Source: Escherichia phage phiWec177
Direction: 5' to 3' (one strand)
DNA: 64,000 nucleotides
Sequence record: LC739532.1
A program made the position numbers and the translations under genes. This document shows, piece after piece, positions 5,780-62,423 of the stretch. Each line of letters opens with the position of its first letter. Position 1 is the stretch's first letter. The notes under the pieces were generated by a model. The model saw nothing but the letters and a program-made list of their open reading frames with translations, was not told the DNA's origin and did no database searches.

Positions 5780-6139
5780 TTATGGGAACAGACACTTAAT
5801 GTCATCGTTTTTGAAAACGAAACTTGTGTAGTTGTGACCATCAACATCTAGCCAAACAGCCTGAGCATCTACACCATCAAGATTTTGGTAAAGCTCTTTG
5901 ATGAAGTGGTCTTTTACAATCTGACTGCTAGTTGTTTCCAACTTAATGTTCGAGATTGCTGAACCTACAGCCATATAACCCATGACACGTTTCTTCTCAG
6001 TGTGCTTAATCTTACCATCTTTGTAAGCCATAATGAGATTGGAAAGAATCTTCACACCATAATACTTTTCAAGGTGAGTGGGTACGCCATAAAAGCCTAA
6101 TGCGAAGTTTTCAGAATGGATAATGTTTTCACGTTTCAT
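5780..6139 (-). CDS. hypothetical protein
   Basis: Track ORF in co-directional operon. Confidence 0.4.
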   Translation of the reverse strand: MKRENIIHSENFALGFYGVPTHLEKYYGVKILSNLIMAYKDGKIKHTEKKRVMGYMAVGSAISNIKLETTSSQIVKDHFIKELYQNLDGVDAQAVWLDVDGHNYTSFVFKNDDIKCLFP

Positions 6140-10170: not shown

Positions 10171-10438
10171 CATCTGGTCAATACACTCGCAAGGTGTACC
10201 AGTTCTCTTATGAACTTCTCCGCATTTCTACGGAGTGTCGGACTATATCACGTAGTAGTAATACTACCGTTGCACTTGGGGATGGTCATTAGCTTACCAC
10301 CCTACTCTACTCAGTTCATACGTTAAGTATGCTTTTCGATAGTCTCTGAACGTTCCTCTTAAGAGGCTTCGCTGCTGATTACCATATCTTTACAGACTTA
10401 GGCTTCCAGCAATTCACAACGTTTTACATGCGCCACTG
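10171..10438 (-). mobile_element. group I self-splicing intron (ORF-less) in DNA polymerase
   Basis: Sense strand shows the P/Q/R/S core elements (AATTGCTGGAAG, AATCAGCAGCG, GTTCAGAGACTATC, TGATATAGTCC), an internal guide GCGCAT pairing with exon end ATGCGT with U:G at the splice site, and a 3' terminal G. Confidence 0.8.
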
Positions 10439-12581
10439 ACGCATAAATGCCATTTTTGCTCTTCTTACGACCTTTTGTAATCTCATGAAGAAGTTCCTCA
10501 TCCTGTGTCTCCCTACAACGAACAATATCTTCTTCCTTGTTCAGACCAAAGTAAATACTGTTAAGTGTATGCGCATCAGTACCTGTGTAGACTTCATACA
10601 AATCATTATCAGCATCGTAACGACAATATTTATCAGCCTCTGGATTTAGGTACTTATCAAGATGCTTGCAGTAGTATCGTCCATCATCCTGTTTAGTGAA
10701 CTCTACAAACTCTTTACCTTCAGTTACCGCTTTGGTGAAGTCTTTATCACCCATAAAGTTACACAGTAAAACAAGCTGTGCAGAGTTCTGGTCAACTGAA
10801 ACGATATTAGTCCCTTCCTCACAAATCCACACCTCCCTCATAGGCGCTCCATAGACAGCAGCACCAGATGGTACGTTTACAATACCATATTGTGTCATAC
10901 GTCCAGTTGAAGTGCCAAACACCATTGCACCAGCACTAAGGCGACCATCAGGACGAATCTGGTTCAACCAACCTTTTTCATCATCCTTTGAGTTCTCAAT
11001 AGTTCTGCGTCGGTGCATCAAAGTATAGTACTTAGCAATCTTCTGTCCAAGCTCACCTTCAATCGTATCATAAGATGACTCAGTAAGTTTTGGTGAAGTA
11101 CGGATTAAGCAAGGCTCAAGCAAATCTGTGTATTTCTTCACAGACCAGTTATGCTCAATGTACTGTACACCTTCATGCTCAACATAGCTCAAACCACACC
11201 GCTCAACCATTTCCTGCCACTTAGGATGCTTTGTAATCATCTTTTTATTGTCTTTGAAACGACAAACTTTGACAGGGCGACCGTCTGAGTCTTTCTTGTA
11301 GTTCCAGTCATCTGGAATCCAACCAACTGATTTCAAGTAGTCTTTAACAACTGCTACCTGAGTCATGCGAGAAACTTCGAACTCAATTGGTGTATATGGT
11401 GCATCAATCAAACCTGTGTAGCGACTTGACTCAAGTTCAAAGTGGTTAACAACGTGGCTGTTATAGTACTTCACAGTTTTGACTGTTTTTACTGGCTTCC
11501 AGTCTTTGCACTTCTTACCAATCTTTGCATTCAACTCATTGCAAATTGCACGAGCATCCTTCATTGCTACAAAACCTTCCTTGTACTCTTCACCAGTTAC
11601 AGAGTTGGTTGGTGTATAGCAATTTCTTTTTTCAATGTTAAAAATCTTTGTAGTTGGCTTACCAAATGGCTTGATTTCGTATGTCTGCATCTCACCGTTA
11701 CGCACCTGCTGACGATACTTTGTTTTAGGGTACTTGGTAATTCTTTTCAGTCCATCTGCATGACCAAATGTTTCAACATACTCATTCCAAGCTTTTGCAA
11801 ACTCTTCTCCAGTCACTTTACCTTTGGTCTTAATAGTTGGAGGTAGATGTGGTTCAACCTCTGAAGCAAGCTCATTAGTCAACTTGTCAAGTTCCTTTAC
11901 ATGGAACTCCATAAGCTCTTTATCAGCTTTCCAACCATTGATAGCTTGTTGACTCATCCAGAAAGATGTTTCTTTAGCTCGCATGTAAGTTTCATAAGTG
12001 TCTATACCACACTTCTTAAGCTTGAGATACTCGTTATCAAGTGCCCGTTTAGTTTTGGCGTTAATACGGATATCTTCTACAACACGAGTGAAGATTTCTG
12101 CATTCCACACACCCCAATGTTCAATCTCTGGCTTACGAACACCAACACGAGCACCCCATGCAGCCAAACCATGAGCACCTTTATAACCCTTTGGAGTTGG
12201 TCTATCCATCCACTGAACACGAGACTGGATAAGAGAATCCTGAAAGAAATTACTCCACGGCTTACATTTTGGATTATCAAAGTTCCATAAATCAGGTGCA
12301 ATGTGATTGAAGACCCACCAGTCATAACCGAGACCGTTATGGATGCAAAGACGTTTTGCCTTTAACGCAAATTCAACACCTTCACGTAAACCACCCTTAA
12401 TGTACTTGGTATACTTGTGACCGAGGATAGGCTCATCTGTAAAGACCCATACAGGTGGCTCTTCATCGTCAGATTTATAGTCTGCGAAAGCCATTACGTG
12501 CACTTTAGTGAACTCAAGGAGTAAACCATCAGTTTCTGTATCACCAACCAAATGTAAGTTCTTAAAATCTACGTTTTCCAT
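10439..12581 (-). CDS. DNA polymerase (family A), exon 1 (3'-5' exonuclease plus polymerase N-part)
   Basis: VGDTETDGL Exo I motif; motif A VSVDQNSAQLVLL; ends within motif B (...RKKSKNGIYA); track ORF reads through into intron to a stop at 10398. Confidence 0.85.
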
Positions 12582-59819: not shown

Positions 59820-59894
59820 GTCGTAGAAGGCAAATGGTTAGCCACCTGACCTTCAATCAGTTGCTCGCGGGTTCGAATCCCGTCTACGACTCCA
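59820..59894 (+). tRNA. tRNA (anticodon TTC, Glu?) tentative
   Basis: Acceptor GTCGTAG/CTACGAC, T-arm GCGGG-TTCGAAT-CCCGT, CCA; anticodon loop CCTTCAA. Confidence 0.6.
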
Positions 59895-59977: not shown

Positions 59978-60054
59978 CGCGGGTATAGAGAAAGGGCGTC
60001 TCACATGTCTCATTAGCATGGTATCGGCAGGTTCGACTCCTGCACCCGCCTCCA
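59978..60054 (+). tRNA. tRNA (anticodon CAT; Met or Ile2)
   Basis: Anticodon arm CATGT-CTCATTA-GCATG, T-arm GCAGG-TTCGACT-CCTGC, CCA. Confidence 0.65.
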
Positions 60055-60138
60055 AATTTACAGAAGACCGTTTACAGCAACATTTATTAAATTTTTAGCG
60101 GAAAAAATTGAAAGATACGGTCTGGTAATACTAAACAT

Positions 60139-60223: not shown

Positions 60224-60311
60224 GTGTCGTTATCCCGTAGATGGTAGCGGTGGGGACTGTAAATCCCTTGTCATTGAGACTCGGTAGGTTCGACTCCTAC
60301 ACGGCACACCA
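60224..60311 (+). tRNA. tRNA-Tyr (anticodon GTA), class II
   Basis: Acceptor GTGTCGT/ACGGCAC, anticodon arm GGGGA-CTGTAAA-TCCCT, long variable arm, T-arm GTAGG-TTCGACT-CCTAC, CCA. Confidence 0.7.
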
Positions 60312-60333
60312 ACACTTAGCGAGATACTTAGTT

Positions 60334-60762
60334 ATGAGAGATGAAGTATACAAATCACAACTTGGTATGAGTTTGGGAACTGCACAAAACAGACTAGTAA
60401 AAGATTTGCTATTCGATTTTATATGTAAGACAAATCAAAATAGATGTTTTCAGTGCGGAAAAGAAATGACTAGGGATGATTTCTCTATCGAGCATAAGAT
60501 TCCGTGGAGACATAGTGAGAATGCAAAAGAGCTTTTCTTTTCACTAGATAATATTTCTTATAGTCATCTTAAATGTAACATGAAAGCAGCAAGACCAGCA
60601 CAGATAAGTGAAAGAAAACATAAAACAATTAAACACGGAACTGCGTATAGCTATTTTAAAGGCTGTAGATGCGATGAGTGTAGGCTGGCTAAGAATGCTG
60701 AGAGTAGAAGAAACTATAGTCCAGAAAGACGTAGGAAGAAGTATCTAAGAAATGGTACATGA
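60334..60762 (+). CDS. HNH endonuclease inside the tRNA array
   Basis: Start at internal Met (MRDEVYK...) of track ORF 60241-60762, whose N-terminal part overlaps tRNA-Tyr; CFQCGKEM...SIEHKIPW...N...HLKCN HNH pattern. Confidence 0.7.
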   Translation: MRDEVYKSQLGMSLGTAQNRLVKDLLFDFICKTNQNRCFQCGKEMTRDDFSIEHKIPWRHSENAKELFFSLDNISYSHLKCNMKAARPAQISERKHKTIKHGTAYSYFKGCRCDECRLAKNAESRRNYSPERRRKKYLRNGT

Positions 60763-60842: not shown

Positions 60843-61270
60843 ATTTTGAGAGGGCTATTTAGCCCCTCCCTTAAAGAGTTCTTACGAGTATTCTTTAAAG
60901 GAGCAGAAGACCAAATTCAGCAAGTTACTTAAAATTTCAAGCCAATTTAATTTTGAAAAATTTAAAACTTGGTCTGGCTCAACAAATTTACAGAAGACCG
61001 TTTACAGCAAAACTTAAACAATCTATTTCTCGGTAAAGAAAAGGCGAAGGTTCGATTCCTTCACTCGGCAGATGTCGAGTTGGTGTAATGGTAGCACTTA
61101 AGATGATAAACAACGGTCTGGTAATTATCTTTGTAGATAAGTTATTAAGCTTACCTGTGAGTATGCGACCACAAAGGGTGAAAGGGTAAATTCTAGATTT
61201 AAACCCAAAAAGGCACATCGCTACAGACCTTAAGCAAGTCTGGGTAGCTTATCTACAAAGATAATTTAAT

Positions 61271-61346
61271 GGAAGTGTAGCAGAATGGTGATGCGGCAGA
61301 CTTTTAATCTGACAGGCGATGGGTTCGAATCCCTCCACTTCTACCA
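61271..61346 (+). tRNA. tRNA-Lys (anticodon TTT)
   Basis: Anticodon loop CTTTTAA, T-loop TTCGAAT, acceptor GGAAGTG/CACTTCT, CCA; T-stem only 3 clear pairs. Confidence 0.6.
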
Positions 61347-61351
61347 AAAAT

Positions 61352-61428
61352 GGTTCAGTCGCAGATAAGGTAATGCAAGGGTCTCATAAGCCCTATGAAT
61401 GTGGGTTCGATTCCCATCTGAACCTCCA
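61352..61428 (+). tRNA. tRNA (anticodon CAT; Met/fMet or Ile2)
   Basis: Acceptor GGTTCAG/CTGAACC, anticodon loop CTCATAA, T-arm GTGGG-TTCGATT-CCCAT, CCA. Confidence 0.7.
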
Positions 61429-61430
61429 AT

Positions 61431-61506
61431 GCTGTGAAAGCACATATGGATGTGCATTCGGCTGATAACCGAAAGGCAGAAGGTTCAAATCCTTCTCACA
61501 GTACCA
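61431..61506 (+). tRNA. tRNA-Ile (anticodon GAT)
   Basis: Acceptor GCTGTGA/TCACAGT, D-arm GCAC..GTGC, anticodon arm TTCGG-CTGATAA-CCGAA, T-arm GAAGG-TTCAAAT-CCTTC, CCA. Confidence 0.75.
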
Positions 61507-61521
61507 ATTTCAATAAAGTTG

Positions 61522-61550
61522 TTGACATTGAGATGTGACTACTTTATAGT
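61522..61550 (+). promoter_or_regulatory. sigma70-like promoter inside tRNA array
   Basis: TTGACA-17 bp-TATAGT. Confidence 0.5.
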
Positions 61551-61754
61551 AACCTTAGTTTTCGTTGCGTAGCGTCTATTTTGCAAATTTAAAATAAATG
61601 CAAACGACAATGTTTTTCTGGCAGTAGCTTGATAGGCTAAACACCAGTGAGGTCTTCCAATCCCTCATCAAAGAATTTGGCGTACTCGCCCACGGTATGA
61701 TTAATAAGGTGGGCATCTTTAAGGGCTTTCTAAGAGAGTCTTTAAAGATAATTA

Positions 61755-61836
61755 CGGGGCGTATCTCAGCTGTCTTCTAAACAGCCGTTAACCGAGTAAG
61801 TGGAGTATGCGGGTTCGAGTCCTGCCGCCTCGACCA
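61755..61836 (+). tRNA. non-canonical tRNA-like element (Arg TCT-like anticodon arm, no clear D-arm)
   Basis: Acceptor CGGGGCG/CGCCTCG, perfect arm GCTGT-CTTCTAA-ACAGC, T-arm GCGGG-TTCGAGT-CCTGC, CCA; only 7 nt between acceptor and anticodon arm, 23 nt before T-arm. Confidence 0.4.
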
Positions 61837-61979
61837 ATTTAGTTAGCAGATTACTTAGACGACCTAAGCGGGTCTTCCTGTAGGGAGGTGGTCTGTATCT
61901 CATGTTTTCAAGAACATGTAAATAATCTGAGAAGGGGCTTTACAGTGTTGAGATAATACGGTAAGCTTCGAATTATAGT

Positions 61980-62062
61980 ATGGGACGATGTTAAGACTCT
62001 AAGGCATGAGCAACGGCCTCCAAAACCGTTTCAAAGGGGTTCAACTCCTCCGTCCCATGCCA
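61980..62062 (+). tRNA. non-canonical tRNA-like element (anticodon undetermined)
   Basis: Acceptor ATGGGAC/GTCCCAT with CCA, T-loop TTCAACT; internal stem AACGG-CCTCCAAAA-CCGTT has a 9-nt loop. Confidence 0.4.
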
Positions 62063-62075
62063 AAGTCTTATTAGG

Positions 62076-62165
62076 GGTAGGTAGCGGCTAATGGTAGCCA
62101 AACTGTCTTGAAAACAGTTGCCACTGTAGAGATACGGTGAGGGTTCGACTCCTTTACTTACCGCC
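62076..62165 (+). tRNA. tRNA-Ser (anticodon TGA), class II
   Basis: 3-bp D-stem, anticodon arm ACTGT-CTTGAAA-ACAGT, about 20-nt variable arm, T-arm GAGGG-TTCGACT-CCTTT; CC only at 3' end. Confidence 0.65.
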
Positions 62166-62423
62166 TAATAAGATTTAATTCCCGCGCTCGTCTAACAAGC
62201 TCGGTTTTTACTCGTGTATTGGCGTACACGGCACGACTATAAAGCACCTAGTAGGTGTCGCGGAGAAGAGATAGTATCAAGCTCTCCAAAGGTTCTAGTC
62301 ACCGGATTAAACAAGACTATGCAAAGACCTTTTTAGGTCTTTTTAGAGGGCTTCTAAGGTTATTACAGCTTGTTGTGGAACCTTGTTGCTTAGGTTCTTA
62401 GAAGTTCTCTAAAAAGGTTTAAT

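Follow-up and report, generated by a model that had tools for sequence, protein, structure and literature searches.

The interval from 61,507 to 62,062 of the window (the whole stretch of 64,000 nucleotides from Escherichia phage phiWec177 that was analyzed, and which matches Escherichia phage phiWec172, a Felixounavirus, with 100% identity) is best explained as a single promoter-driven small-RNA gene unit within the Felixounavirus tRNA array, composed of a leader RNA, a first tRNA-like element (unit 1), a spacer, and a second tRNA-like element (unit 2). We give this explanation as a whole, including the mechanism proposed below for the leader, a probability of about 0.55. The original prediction had placed a sigma70-like promoter at 61522–61550, about 200 nt of hairpin-rich RNA after it, and two tRNA-like units at 61755–61836 and 61980–62062, and all of these positions were borne out by our analysis. 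Its interpretation of the units fared unevenly: they are indeed unusual tRNAs or derivatives of tRNAs, and its hint at a Ro60-like neighbor was well founded, but the idea that the units themselves resemble Y RNAs did not hold. What it overlooked, under the label of “hairpin-rich sequence”, is that the leader is, as judged by comparative analysis, a template for a tmRNA-type tag. The features of the interval and the grounds for them are the following.

61522–61550, plus strand: sigma-70 promoter, TTGACA-17-TATAGT (11/12 matches), with a predicted +1 at A61557
61557–61754, plus strand: leader RNA, about 198 nt, homologous to the messenger (tag-encoding) domain of tmRNA and without a tRNA-like domain (Rfam alignments below gathering, family covariation)
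61557–61565, plus strand: invariant 5′ end of the leader, AGUUUUCGU, the Watson–Crick complement of E. coli tmRNA nt 97–105
61594–61635, plus strand: AUAAAU upstream element, putative resume codon GCA (61600), tag frame, and stops UGA UAG (19 distinct frames compared)
61618–61647, plus strand: hairpin CUGG...CCAG, in whose loop the tag frame ends and the stop lies, like helix 5 of tmRNA (covariation)
61648–61680, plus strand: H-type pseudoknot, with S1 UGAGG/CCUCA (61648–52/61663–67) and S2 CCAA/UUGG (61657–60/61677–80) (covariation)
61688–61714, plus strand: terminal hairpin GCCCAC/GUGGGC, with a family-conserved loop containing UGAUUAAUAA (family alignment)
61715–61749, plus strand: variable hairpin between the conserved core of the leader and unit 1 (comparison and folding)
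61755–61836, plus strand: unit 1, a non-canonical tRNA(UCU) (family alignment, covariation, Rfam tRNA alignment)
61837–61979, plus strand: conserved spacer RNA, 143 nt (fold z = −2.5, conservation)
61881–61894, plus strand: UAGGGAGGUGGUCU, able to pair, with G·U allowed, to all 14 3′-terminal nt of 16S rRNA (complementarity scan)
61948–61976, plus strand: weak promoter-like site within the spacer (promoter scan)
61980–62062, plus strand: unit 2, an element probably derived from tRNA-Trp(CCA) (core shared with phage tRNA-Trp)

The promoter at 61522–61550 is the best one between 59.5 and 63.3 kb, and Erwinia phage Hena2 carries a promoter, TTGACA-17-TAATCT, at an equal distance from AGUUUUCG. 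Transcription from A61557 would yield the leader of about 198 nt, whose region is strongly folded (−58.8 kcal/mol, z = −4.3), none of 200 shuffled sequences folding as well. A tmRNA is defined by a tRNA-like half joined to a messenger half, and the features of the second are found in the leader: a frame with GCA as resume codon follows an A-rich element containing U-A and ends in a hydrophobic, Ala-rich C-terminus and a stop, this stop lies in a hairpin corresponding to helix 5, and a pseudoknot comes directly after. In the window, the frame reads GCA AAC GAC AAU GUU UUU CUG GCA GUA GCU and would specify the 10-codon tag ANDNVFLAVA. The tmRNA model of Rfam aligns the tag region of the leader at 16 bits, and an HK620-type copy independently matches tmRNA_permuted at 24.4 bits, as well as beta_tmRNA, both values being below the gathering score of 47. 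Throughout the family, the 19 distinct tag frames all consist of 10 codons plus a stop and follow the pattern A-N-[DE]-x-x-x-L-[AM]-[VA]-A. The stop keeps its position while varying in identity (UAA, UGA, UAG), codon 10 is GCU, GCC, or GCG and hence Ala in all members, codon 3 is GAU, GAC, or GAA, and the tag of Hena2 shows further synonymous changes for Asn (AAC>AAU) and Val (GUA>GUG). Part of the apparently synonymous variation, at codons 7–8, is by itself no proof of translation, since it is also compensated in the hairpin. The helices of the leader covary too: two pairs are changed on both sides in the CUGG...CCAG hairpin (helix 2, 94.8% paired) and three in each of the pseudoknot helices 3 and 4 (99.0% and 96.3% paired). 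The terminal hairpin (helix 5 of the leader) keeps its loop while the sequence of its stem varies among lineages, and the slot at 61715–61749 is occupied in Felix O1 by another stem and other cargo.

The other half of a tmRNA, that is, an acceptor stem with G3·U70, a T arm, and CCA, was found neither at the ends of the leader nor in a piece paired with it. ARAGORN, run among others on 30 leader loci, detected no tRNA-like domain for the leader in cis, and a dedicated script that looks for T-arm/acceptor partners within 2.5 kb of the leader returned no partner; as controls, this script recovered one true permuted tmRNA from a viral contig (L047) and missed another (L019). A tRNA-like domain in cis was rejected because both searches gave nothing but chance matches to ordinary tRNAs. 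According to published work (PMC4319497, PMC4392139), ARAGORN detects ssrA in Felix O1 and Moogle. We reproduced this call at relaxed thresholds only, as a permuted tmRNA whose start lies about 17 nt before tRNA-Lys and whose acceptor half is therefore evidently that of this ordinary tRNA.

Parts of the interval are matched by 742 phage records, and the HK620-type copy of the leader by 260. Hundreds of enterobacterial phages belonging to several unrelated groups, among which HK620-like, Felix O1-like, Vi1-like, and N4-like phages, carry homologs of the leader, as do 137 of 5,426 complete E. coli genomes, where they lie in prophages, flanked by the Q antiterminator and holin genes. They are found beside a canonical tRNA-Arg or without any tRNA, and are unannotated in all records inspected. 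The literature on tag peptides, tmRNA-like phage RNAs, and D-arm-less phage tRNAs yielded no description of the elements reported here.

The 5′ end of the leader forms a putative seed directed at the tmRNA of the host. This invariant end, AGUUUUCG(U), is antisense to tag codons 3–6 of host tmRNA (GAC GAA AAC UAC), and the perfect complementarity spans 9 nt in the window and 11 nt in lambdoid-type copies (E. coli tmRNA nt 96–106). GUUUUCG is present in all family members, the target GACGAAAACUAC is the predominant form among Enterobacterales tmRNAs, the seed is located at the predicted +1 in two Ounavirinae genera, and the phage tags diverge from the host tag in exactly the segment targeted by the seed. 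In Salmonella, the tag is ANDETYALAA, which would interrupt the seed duplex with a central mismatch. Whole-length RNAduplex predictions between the leader and E. coli tmRNA were uninformative, the unconstrained duplexes being no better than those of shuffled sequences, and the seed match was assessed by counting perfect runs instead. When all positions of both RNAs are allowed, its significance is modest, as an 11-nt run arose in 4 of 300 shuffles and a run of at least 9 nt in about 15% of them. A pairing of the leader terminal loop with tmRNA nt 236–242 (7 nt) was rejected as being at chance level.

From these elements, we propose that an RNase P cut at the 5′ end of unit 1 presumably sets the 3′ end of the leader and releases it as a messenger domain devoid of a tRNA-like domain, which would dock on host tmRNA through its 5′ seed, mask the host tag template, and present its own. 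Rescued ribosomes would then add a phage-specified tag, or the tagging by the host would merely be blocked. In the first of these outcomes, the leader would act in trans as a tag-swapping device: its seed would pair with host tag codons 3–6, the alanine-charged tRNA-like domain of the host and SmpB would carry the phage RNA to stalled ribosomes, and nascent chains would receive AN[DE]xxxL[AM][VA]A and not the ClpXP degron ANDENYALAA. We regard this as unlikely. To our knowledge, template exchange between two RNAs is without precedent. If true, tag swapping would amount to a hybrid, two-piece tmRNA shared between host and phage and widespread in enterobacterial phages. The leader could also be a pure inhibitor or decoy of host trans-translation, antisense to the tag template and/or a sponge for SmpB or S1, whose own frame is never translated, a possibility that we hold to be real if doubtful. 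The lack of a tRNA-like domain and the complementarity of the 5′ seed to host tmRNA would both suit an inhibitor, as would the compensation of codon 7–8 variation in the leader hairpin, and the partial tmRNA of mycobacteriophage DS6A, which consists of a tRNA-like domain only and has been proposed to inhibit tmRNA through titration of SmpB, provides a precedent (PMC4131195, PMC11915505). Such a role accounts poorly, however, for a frame fixed at 10 codons whose stop changes identity and never position, for an Ala at codon 10 maintained through three different codons, and for synonymous changes in Asn, Asp, and Val codons; besides, one would expect a decoy to reproduce the tag of the host, from which the phage tags differ. 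A translating ribosome is able to unwind 11 bp, so the blocking of the host tag by the seed may in any case be weak.

Unit 1 is, by its alignment and covariation, a member of a conserved phage tRNA(UCU) family with a non-canonical core. The acceptor stem, T arm, CCA, and Arg-UCU-like arm that the original prediction described are all present, with no room for a D arm. The 7-bp acceptor stem (61755–61/61826–32) is followed by only 7 nt (UAUCUCA), where a canonical tRNA would place a D hairpin before its anticodon stem. The anticodon arm (61769–85) has a 5-bp stem and the 7-nt loop CUUCUAA, with the anticodon UCU at 61776–78, U33, and a purine at position 37; it is enclosed by a 3-bp D-like stem (CUC 61765–67/GAG 61794–96). 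Then come 23 nt, a T arm (61809–25) with a 5-bp stem and a 7-nt loop, and the discriminator A73 with CCA, a conserved 13-nt strand containing GG joining the D-like stem to the T arm. The family comprises 26 distinct aligned sequences, 25 of them from other phages, in which 99.2% of the pairs are formed with 144 double-change cells, a result reached by none of 500 shuffles. In total, 14 pairs covary; covariation is seen in the acceptor, anticodon, and T stems, a swap from U12-A42 to A12-U42 occurs twice, and the anticodon loop is invariant. On the window, ARAGORN did not detect unit 1, and Rfam did not report it at gathering score. Applied to the region of unit 1 alone (576 nt), the tRNA model of Rfam gave 31.2 bits (>29), in an alignment that omits the D arm and contains an insert of 20 nt. 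The few annotated records label it tRNA-OTHER. SLAM_phiST56, like many other Felixounaviruses, has a canonical tRNA-Arg(UCU) in this slot.

We therefore consider unit 1 a rearranged and probably functional tRNA(UCU), which would most likely carry Arg to AGA, a codon over-used by these phages. Against Arg speaks the location of A20, the identity element of ArgRS, in the D loop, a part of unit 1 that is not canonical. In addition, G3·U70 and A73 constitute the alanine identity; as the window copy has both, the amino acid carried by unit 1 is uncertain. In the genome paper of Felix O1, AGA was noted as over-represented, and the tRNA expected to match it was not found (PMC3185647); unit 1 may account for this “missing” tRNA.

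Between unit 1 and unit 2, the spacer holds UAGGGAGGUGGUCU, the sole run of at least 11 nt complementary to the 16S tail on either strand of the 64-kb window. This motif is kept in Erwinia phage Hena2 and Klebsiella phage P5026. A mini-ORF after this Shine–Dalgarno-like 14-mer was rejected, its length not being conserved. Unit 2 has an acceptor stem, a T arm, A1-U72, G73-CCA, a 5-bp internal stem, and the anticodon CCA at 62020–22, the 9-nt internal loop described by the original prediction being obtained if C31·A39 is counted as unpaired. Its core, GAGC-A-ACGGn-CUCCAAA-ACCGU, is common to canonical phage tRNA-Trp(CCA), as are A1-U72 and G73, and Trp alone among the amino acids lacks a canonical tRNA in the array of the phage. 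The CUCCAAA loop is present, but the cloverleaf is broken by an insertion of about 7 extra nt between the acceptor and D stems (the D arm being CUC-UAAGGCAU-GAG, 61997–62010) and by three A·C mismatches (10·25, 31·39, 49·65), and the best Rfam score is 23 bits, for tRNA-Sec. Among Felix-like phages, the changes in unit 2 break pairs without compensation, hence it may be non-functional. Unit 2 is thus probably a degenerating derivative of tRNA-Trp(CCA). As a side observation, HNH endonuclease genes are repeated invaders of the tRNA arrays of Felix O1-like phages.

The state of unit 2 and the HNH invasions lend some credit to a broader alternative, in which the leader and both non-canonical units would be functionless, decaying remnants, namely a tRNA pseudogene and a captured tmRNA fragment. 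For the interval as a whole, we find this very unlikely: unit 1 is nearly fully paired and covarying across sequences from unrelated phages, and the leader is conserved across several phage groups that are unrelated to one another, its helices covarying and its reading frame fixed. Since both are conserved and covarying, decay is left standing for unit 2 only, for which a functionless remnant has about an even chance. It could also be imagined that the leader has its tRNA-like partner in unit 1, which would accept alanine without a D stem, and that the pair forms a new two-piece or tandem tmRNA. The window copy, directly 3′ of the leader, does have G2-C71, G3·U70, A73-CCA, and no D hairpin, and a G·U at 3:70 recurs in 6 of the 26 aligned family members. 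Yet position 3:70 is Watson–Crick in phi92 and most members, the discriminator is usually G, and the invariant CUUCUAA loop on a covarying anticodon stem argues for decoding. Moreover, unit 1 relatives outside Felixounavirus have no leader within the few kb of flank covered, leaders occur with a canonical tRNA-Arg or no tRNA, and no helix joining the two RNAs was found. An alanine-charged tmRNA-like domain, including one of the DS6A type, was rejected on the unconserved G3·U70 and the invariant anticodon loop, and the partnership as such appears most improbable. A kissing contact between the UGAUUAA loop of the leader and the UUAAYC loop of unit 1 was dropped because only Felix-like phages have the two RNAs side by side and because the match centers on the palindrome UUAA.

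The remaining alternative, proposed by the original prediction, takes the two units for Y RNA-like RNAs that would partner with the Ro60-like protein encoded nearby. The 471-aa neighbor (58155–59570) does have a Ro60/TROVE fold, its structure model (pLDDT 88) matching Ro60/Rsr over the full length with Foldseek E values of 1e-7 to 1e-8, although its family is DUF2828/DUF7788 and not the Pfam TROVE family; and the Y RNAs of bacteria are tRNA mimics to which CCA can be added (PMC4201824). However, the ends of the units form a 7-bp acceptor stem with CCA in tRNA order, and both units lack a long terminal stem as well as the T-AS-D order. At E ≤ 10, Rfam matched neither the units nor the spacer nor the copies in other phages to a Y RNA or another curated family, and relatives of unit 1 occur in many phages at loci where no Ro60-like gene was noted. 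The locus also offers a much better candidate, a YrlA-like RNA with full YrlA architecture at 60986–61137, about 620 nt upstream of the elements studied here, whose long terminal stem is accompanied by T, AS, and D in order (the GNCGAAN0-1G motif was not seen in this stem), and a short second copy at 60054–60135. We accordingly give almost no credence to Y RNA-like units.

Trans-translation is a universal bacterial quality-control pathway. A conserved messenger-only relative of tmRNA whose tag frame is intact and evolving and whose 5′ end runs antisense to the tag template of the host, shared by hundreds of E. coli, Salmonella, Klebsiella, and Erwinia phages and prophages, would mean that ribosome rescue, or what becomes of tagged proteins, is under phage manipulation. 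The role of the leader is directly testable in HK620, Felix O1, and other model phages. As a putative new tRNA architecture, missed by standard finders or labeled “undetermined”, unit 1 bears on the rules relating tRNA structure to function and on counts of phage tRNA repertoires. With the Ro60-fold protein and the YrlA-like RNAs, the locus could offer a compact phage system for Ro60–Y RNA biology.

Compared with known systems, the locus resembles YrlA with Ro60/Rsr (PMC4201824) in having a Ro60-fold gene beside the array and an RNA, 60986–61137, with a long stem and the V, T, AS, D order, and departs from it in that units 1 and 2 lack the YrlA architecture and that the protein belongs to DUF2828/DUF7788. 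Unit 1 shares with canonical tRNA-Arg(UCU) and E. coli argU the CUUCUAA loop, the 7-bp acceptor, the 5-bp T arm with a GTTCGAG-type loop, an A or G discriminator, CCA, and an equal genomic slot in sister phages, and differs in having, in place of a D hairpin, a 3-bp D-like stem around the anticodon arm and the 13-nt GG strand. Like the mitochondrial tRNAs that lack a D arm and the allo-tRNAs with their altered cloverleaves (PMC5389517), it deviates from the standard cloverleaf and still keeps acceptor, T, and anticodon arms. Its anticodon arm is nested in the D stem, whereas the others have lost the D arm or have an 8/4 or 9/3 acceptor/T arrangement, and unlike them it is found in virulent and jumbo phages of Enterobacteria and Vibrio. 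The leader is closest to the coding piece of permuted betaproteobacterial tmRNA (RF04321/RF01850), with which it has its best Rfam alignments and shares AUAAAU-GCA-AAC-GAU, a 10-codon tag of the AND..(L/M)AA type, and a stop in a hairpin directly followed by a pseudoknot; the tags of L019 and L047, ANDERFLMAA and ANDNAFLMAA, are akin to its own. In contrast to the permuted form, it has no acceptor 5′ strand and no nearby acceptor piece (T arm and CCA), scores below gathering, stands under its own promoter or in the late leader of prophages, and begins with a 5′ end antisense to host tmRNA. Finally, the tmRNA of DS6A is likewise a partial tmRNA encoded by a phage and proposed to disturb host trans-translation (PMC4131195, PMC11915505), and the two retain opposite halves of the molecule: DS6A has the tRNA-like domain without the tag frame, and the leader the tag frame without the tRNA-like domain.

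The window matches Escherichia phage phiWec172 (Felixounavirus) at 100% identity, and the elements considered here are set in a large tRNA array downstream of the gene for a 471-aa protein. ARAGORN called 17 tRNAs within 59.7-63.2 kb and none between tRNA-Ile (ending at 61506) and tRNA-Ser (starting at 62076), and Rfam at gathering score concurs. The original prediction had placed a promoter, some 200 nt of hairpin-rich sequence and two tRNA-like units in this interval, and we recovered each of them, the promoter at the very same position:

58155-59570, + strand: 471-aa "RNA-binding protein", Pfam DUF2828 and DUF7788, with a predicted Ro60/TROVE plus vWA fold
60986-61137: RNA of YrlA architecture, with a long terminal stem (AGACCGUU/AACGGUCU), V hairpin, T arm (61046-61062), 7-bp acceptor-like stem-loop (61063-61080) and D arm (61082-61098)
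61522-61550, + strand: sigma-70-like promoter, TTGACA-17-TATAGT, 11/12 matches, which sets +1 at A61557
61557-61754: leader RNA
61755-61836: tRNA-like unit 1
61881-61894: spacer motif UAGGGAGGUGGUCU, also written UA(G/A)GGAGGUGGUCU, able to pair along all 14 nt of the 16S rRNA 3' tail
61980-62062: tRNA-like unit 2

The 198 nt leading up to unit 1 out-fold their shuffles by far (z = -4.3), and the Rfam tmRNA model aligns to 61564-61753, with the tag region as the well-aligned core. Here the leader reads AAAAUAAAU GCA AAC GAC AAU GUU UUU CUG GCA GUA GCU UGA (ANDNVFLAVA*), the counterpart in Escherichia coli tmRNA being AAUAGUC GCA AAC GAC GAA AAC UAC GCU UUA GCA GCU UAA (ANDENYALAA*). All 19 distinct tag frames run for 10 codons before a stop whose identity varies (UAA, UGA, UAG) and whose position is constant, and follow the pattern A-N-[DE]-x-x-x-L-[AM]-[VA]-A; codon 10 encodes Ala through three codons, and the frame of Erwinia phage Hena2 has further synonymous changes in Asn and Val codons. 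In an alignment of 20 sequences, covariation is found in four elements, namely the stop-codon-bearing hairpin, both stems of an H-type pseudoknot and the terminal hairpin: 94.6% of cells are paired and 13 pairs changed on both sides (at most 5 in slid controls), which 0 of 500 shuffles matched. The sole Rfam matches of the HK620-type copy are tmRNA_permuted (24.4 bits) and beta_tmRNA. The identity of the leader as an orphan tmRNA messenger domain is well supported.

Could the tRNA-like domain simply lie elsewhere? Neither the window nor Felix O1 nor any of 24 other loci yielded an ARAGORN tmRNA call, and the same run did call permuted tmRNAs in control contigs. A script seeking, within 2.5 kb on each side, a T arm whose following strand pairs with sequence upstream of the tag returned, outside the control, nothing beyond chance matches, permissive of G·U, to ordinary tRNAs; of its two controls it recovered L047 and missed L019, which shows incomplete sensitivity. 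In Pollock, the copy runs into a terminator and has no T arm. With lowered thresholds, ARAGORN did report a "permuted tmRNA" with the correct tag at 61254-61723, and we rejected this candidate: it begins ~17 nt upstream of tRNA-Lys, itself upstream of the promoter, so that this ordinary tRNA evidently supplies the acceptor half. Such a call is the probable source of the one-line remarks in which Felix O1 and Moogle are credited with ssrA (PMC4319497, PMC4392139). In the curated 2014 census of tmRNAs, the only phages listed with ssrA are mycobacteriophages and Bacillus phage G (PMC4131195).

BLAST and pattern scans found leader homologues in unrelated phages, including the Kuttervirus Se-J, the N4-like Pollock, IME11 and St11Ph5, Klebsiella phage P5026 and its relatives, Salmonella phage SenALZ1 (122 kb), HK620 and Hena2, as well as in many IMG/VR contigs and in 137 of 5,426 complete E. 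coli genomes, where the copy inspected lies in a late leader, between the Q antiterminator and holin genes. The homologue lacks annotation in every record inspected, and the family, widespread in phages, is apparently undescribed.

In the late leaders of lambdoid prophages (L172 2925-3360; L037, L100, L077, L127), the tmRNA-like RNA sits within cassette arrays whose units are flanked by complementary strands that recur, (CACAAC)AGGUAAGAGCAUU ... AGUGCUCUUUCC(GUUGUG). Between the two strands of each pair lie small RNAs that vary, a T arm being present in some, and one such cargo (CCCUUAUGGGGCUUGGCUUAAAUGCA) is shared with a variable hairpin of Felix O1 (L008 ~5900-5930). Possible readings are stems for RNase III processing and recombination cassettes.

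Unit 1 folds as first described, with a 7-bp acceptor, 7 nt, a 5-bp stem with loop CUUCUAA, 23 nt, a T arm and A-CCA; searched alone, the region scores 31.2 bits against the Rfam tRNA model, in an alignment that lacks the D arm and carries a 20-nt insertion. By pattern scan and BLAST we collected about 30 distinct relatives, from phi92-like, Sugarland-like, jumbo and Vibrio phages, and aligned 26. Invariant among these are G7, UAUCUCA, the loop CUUCUAA and CGUUAAYCGAGUAAnnGGAGUAU, and the acceptor, anticodon and T stems covary (99.2% of cells paired, 14 pairs changed on both sides, 0 of 500 shuffles matching). CUC (11-13) pairs with GAG (41-43), a U-A having become A-U in two lineages, so that the anticodon arm is nested within a short D-like stem, which a conserved strand containing GG joins to the T arm. 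As for charging, the window's unit combines G3·U70 and A73, an alanine identity, with a UCU anticodon, although this G·U is not conserved across the family (6 of 26 members, against 0-2 at other acceptor positions). Between identical flanks, SLAM_phiST56 and many further Felixounaviruses have a canonical tRNA-Arg(UCU) in place of unit 1. The Felix O1 genome paper noted over-use of AGA and an expected tRNA that went undetected (PMC3185647), and the element is entered as tRNA-OTHER in a few records. From these sequence comparisons we conclude that unit 1 is a putatively functional tRNA reading AGA, and that its core topology is new; its membership of a new structural class of tRNA(UCU) is well supported.

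In unit 2, the acceptor, T arm and G-CCA are present as predicted, and the loop of the internal stem counts 9 nt if a C·A is taken as unpaired. It has in common with canonical phage tRNA-Trp(CCA) the segments GAGC-A-ACGGn-CUCCAAA-ACCGU, A1-U72 and G73, and the array provides a canonical tRNA for every amino acid except Trp. About 7 extra nt separate the acceptor from a 3-bp D stem, and A·C mismatches occur at 10·25, 31·39 and 49·65. Differences among Felix-like phages are few, pair-breaking and uncompensated, in contrast to a compensated change in the neighboring tRNA-Ser. Unit 2 is probably degenerating, and its identity as a decaying tRNA-Trp is well supported; a part in reading UGA as near-cognate, on the model of altered tRNA-Trp (PMC13092985), would be speculation.

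The reading of these units as unusual tRNAs stands; the alternative also raised, Y RNA-like transcripts, does not: neither fits the YrlA family, whose architecture is found instead at 60986-61137. The acceptor-like stem of that RNA has another sequence, still paired, in a divergent Felix-like contig (L163), and a short, YrlB-like copy at 60054-60135 keeps only its stem. The Ro60-like neighbor invoked for the Y RNA view is itself upheld by structure prediction: the 471-aa protein has no sequence match in the PDB, and its AlphaFold model (pLDDT 88) matches Ro60/TROVE structures over its full length, with Thermus phage phiLo Ro60, Xenopus Ro60 and Deinococcus Rsr on top (E 1e-7 to 1e-8) and Ro60/Rsr as all of the best 12 matches.

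The spacer motif is the window's only 16S-tail complement of 11 or more, and is kept across Ounavirinae genera, in Hena2 (L291 1030-1043) and P5026 (L005); no conserved ORF follows it. Elsewhere in the array, a tRNA at 59820-59891 (+; Rfam 53.7 bits), annotated as tRNA-Glu at the equivalent position in sister phages, was missed by ARAGORN and is absent from the phiWec172 record. An ORF between tRNA-Tyr and tRNA-Asp (60241-60762, +) weakly matches HNH endonucleases (Pfam E 3.5e-4, narrowly missing the cut-off), and the Felix O1 array has more HNH genes at other insertion points, one immediately after unit 1. The 258-nt non-coding gap from tRNA-Ser to tRNA-Leu (62166-62423, +) holds long hairpins, its microRNA-model matches being spurious, and is conserved in Felix O1. 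A group I intron lies at 10218-10501 (-; RF00028, 63.8 bits, above gathering). In Hena2, an unannotated stretch before the promoter (L291 ~489-662) ends in ...GGAGAGGTTCGAATCCTTAATCACTCGCCA, a T arm plus CCA end with its acceptor partner ~150 nt upstream, and may be another non-canonical or interrupted tRNA-like RNA.

With regard to how the leader might act, its most conserved part across the family is the 5' end, (A)UAGUUUUCG, and the promoter-set +1 is the A of AGUUUUCG in both the window and Hena2. This end is perfectly complementary to nt 96-106 of E. coli tmRNA (tag codons GAC GAA AAC UA). The match spans 11 nt in copies of the lambdoid type and 9 nt in that of Felix, and is statistically modest if any position may pair (4 of 300 shuffles contained an 11-nt run). 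Many regulatory RNAs likewise have their seed at the 5' end. As a testable hypothesis, the leader would dock on host tmRNA through this end, and either the missing tRNA-like domain would be supplied in trans (tag swapping) or the host template would be masked (inhibition); the fixed reading frame favors tag swapping, and the lack of precedent favors inhibition. tRNA-Arg(UCU) genes often lie near the leader, and AGA-rich phage genes may be at risk of stalling and ssrA tagging at rare codons, a thematic link we draw by inference. Among Enterobacterales tmRNAs, GACGAAAACUAC is the predominant form, and the phage tags depart from the host tag in exactly the segment complementary to the seed, so that the leader would not target itself.
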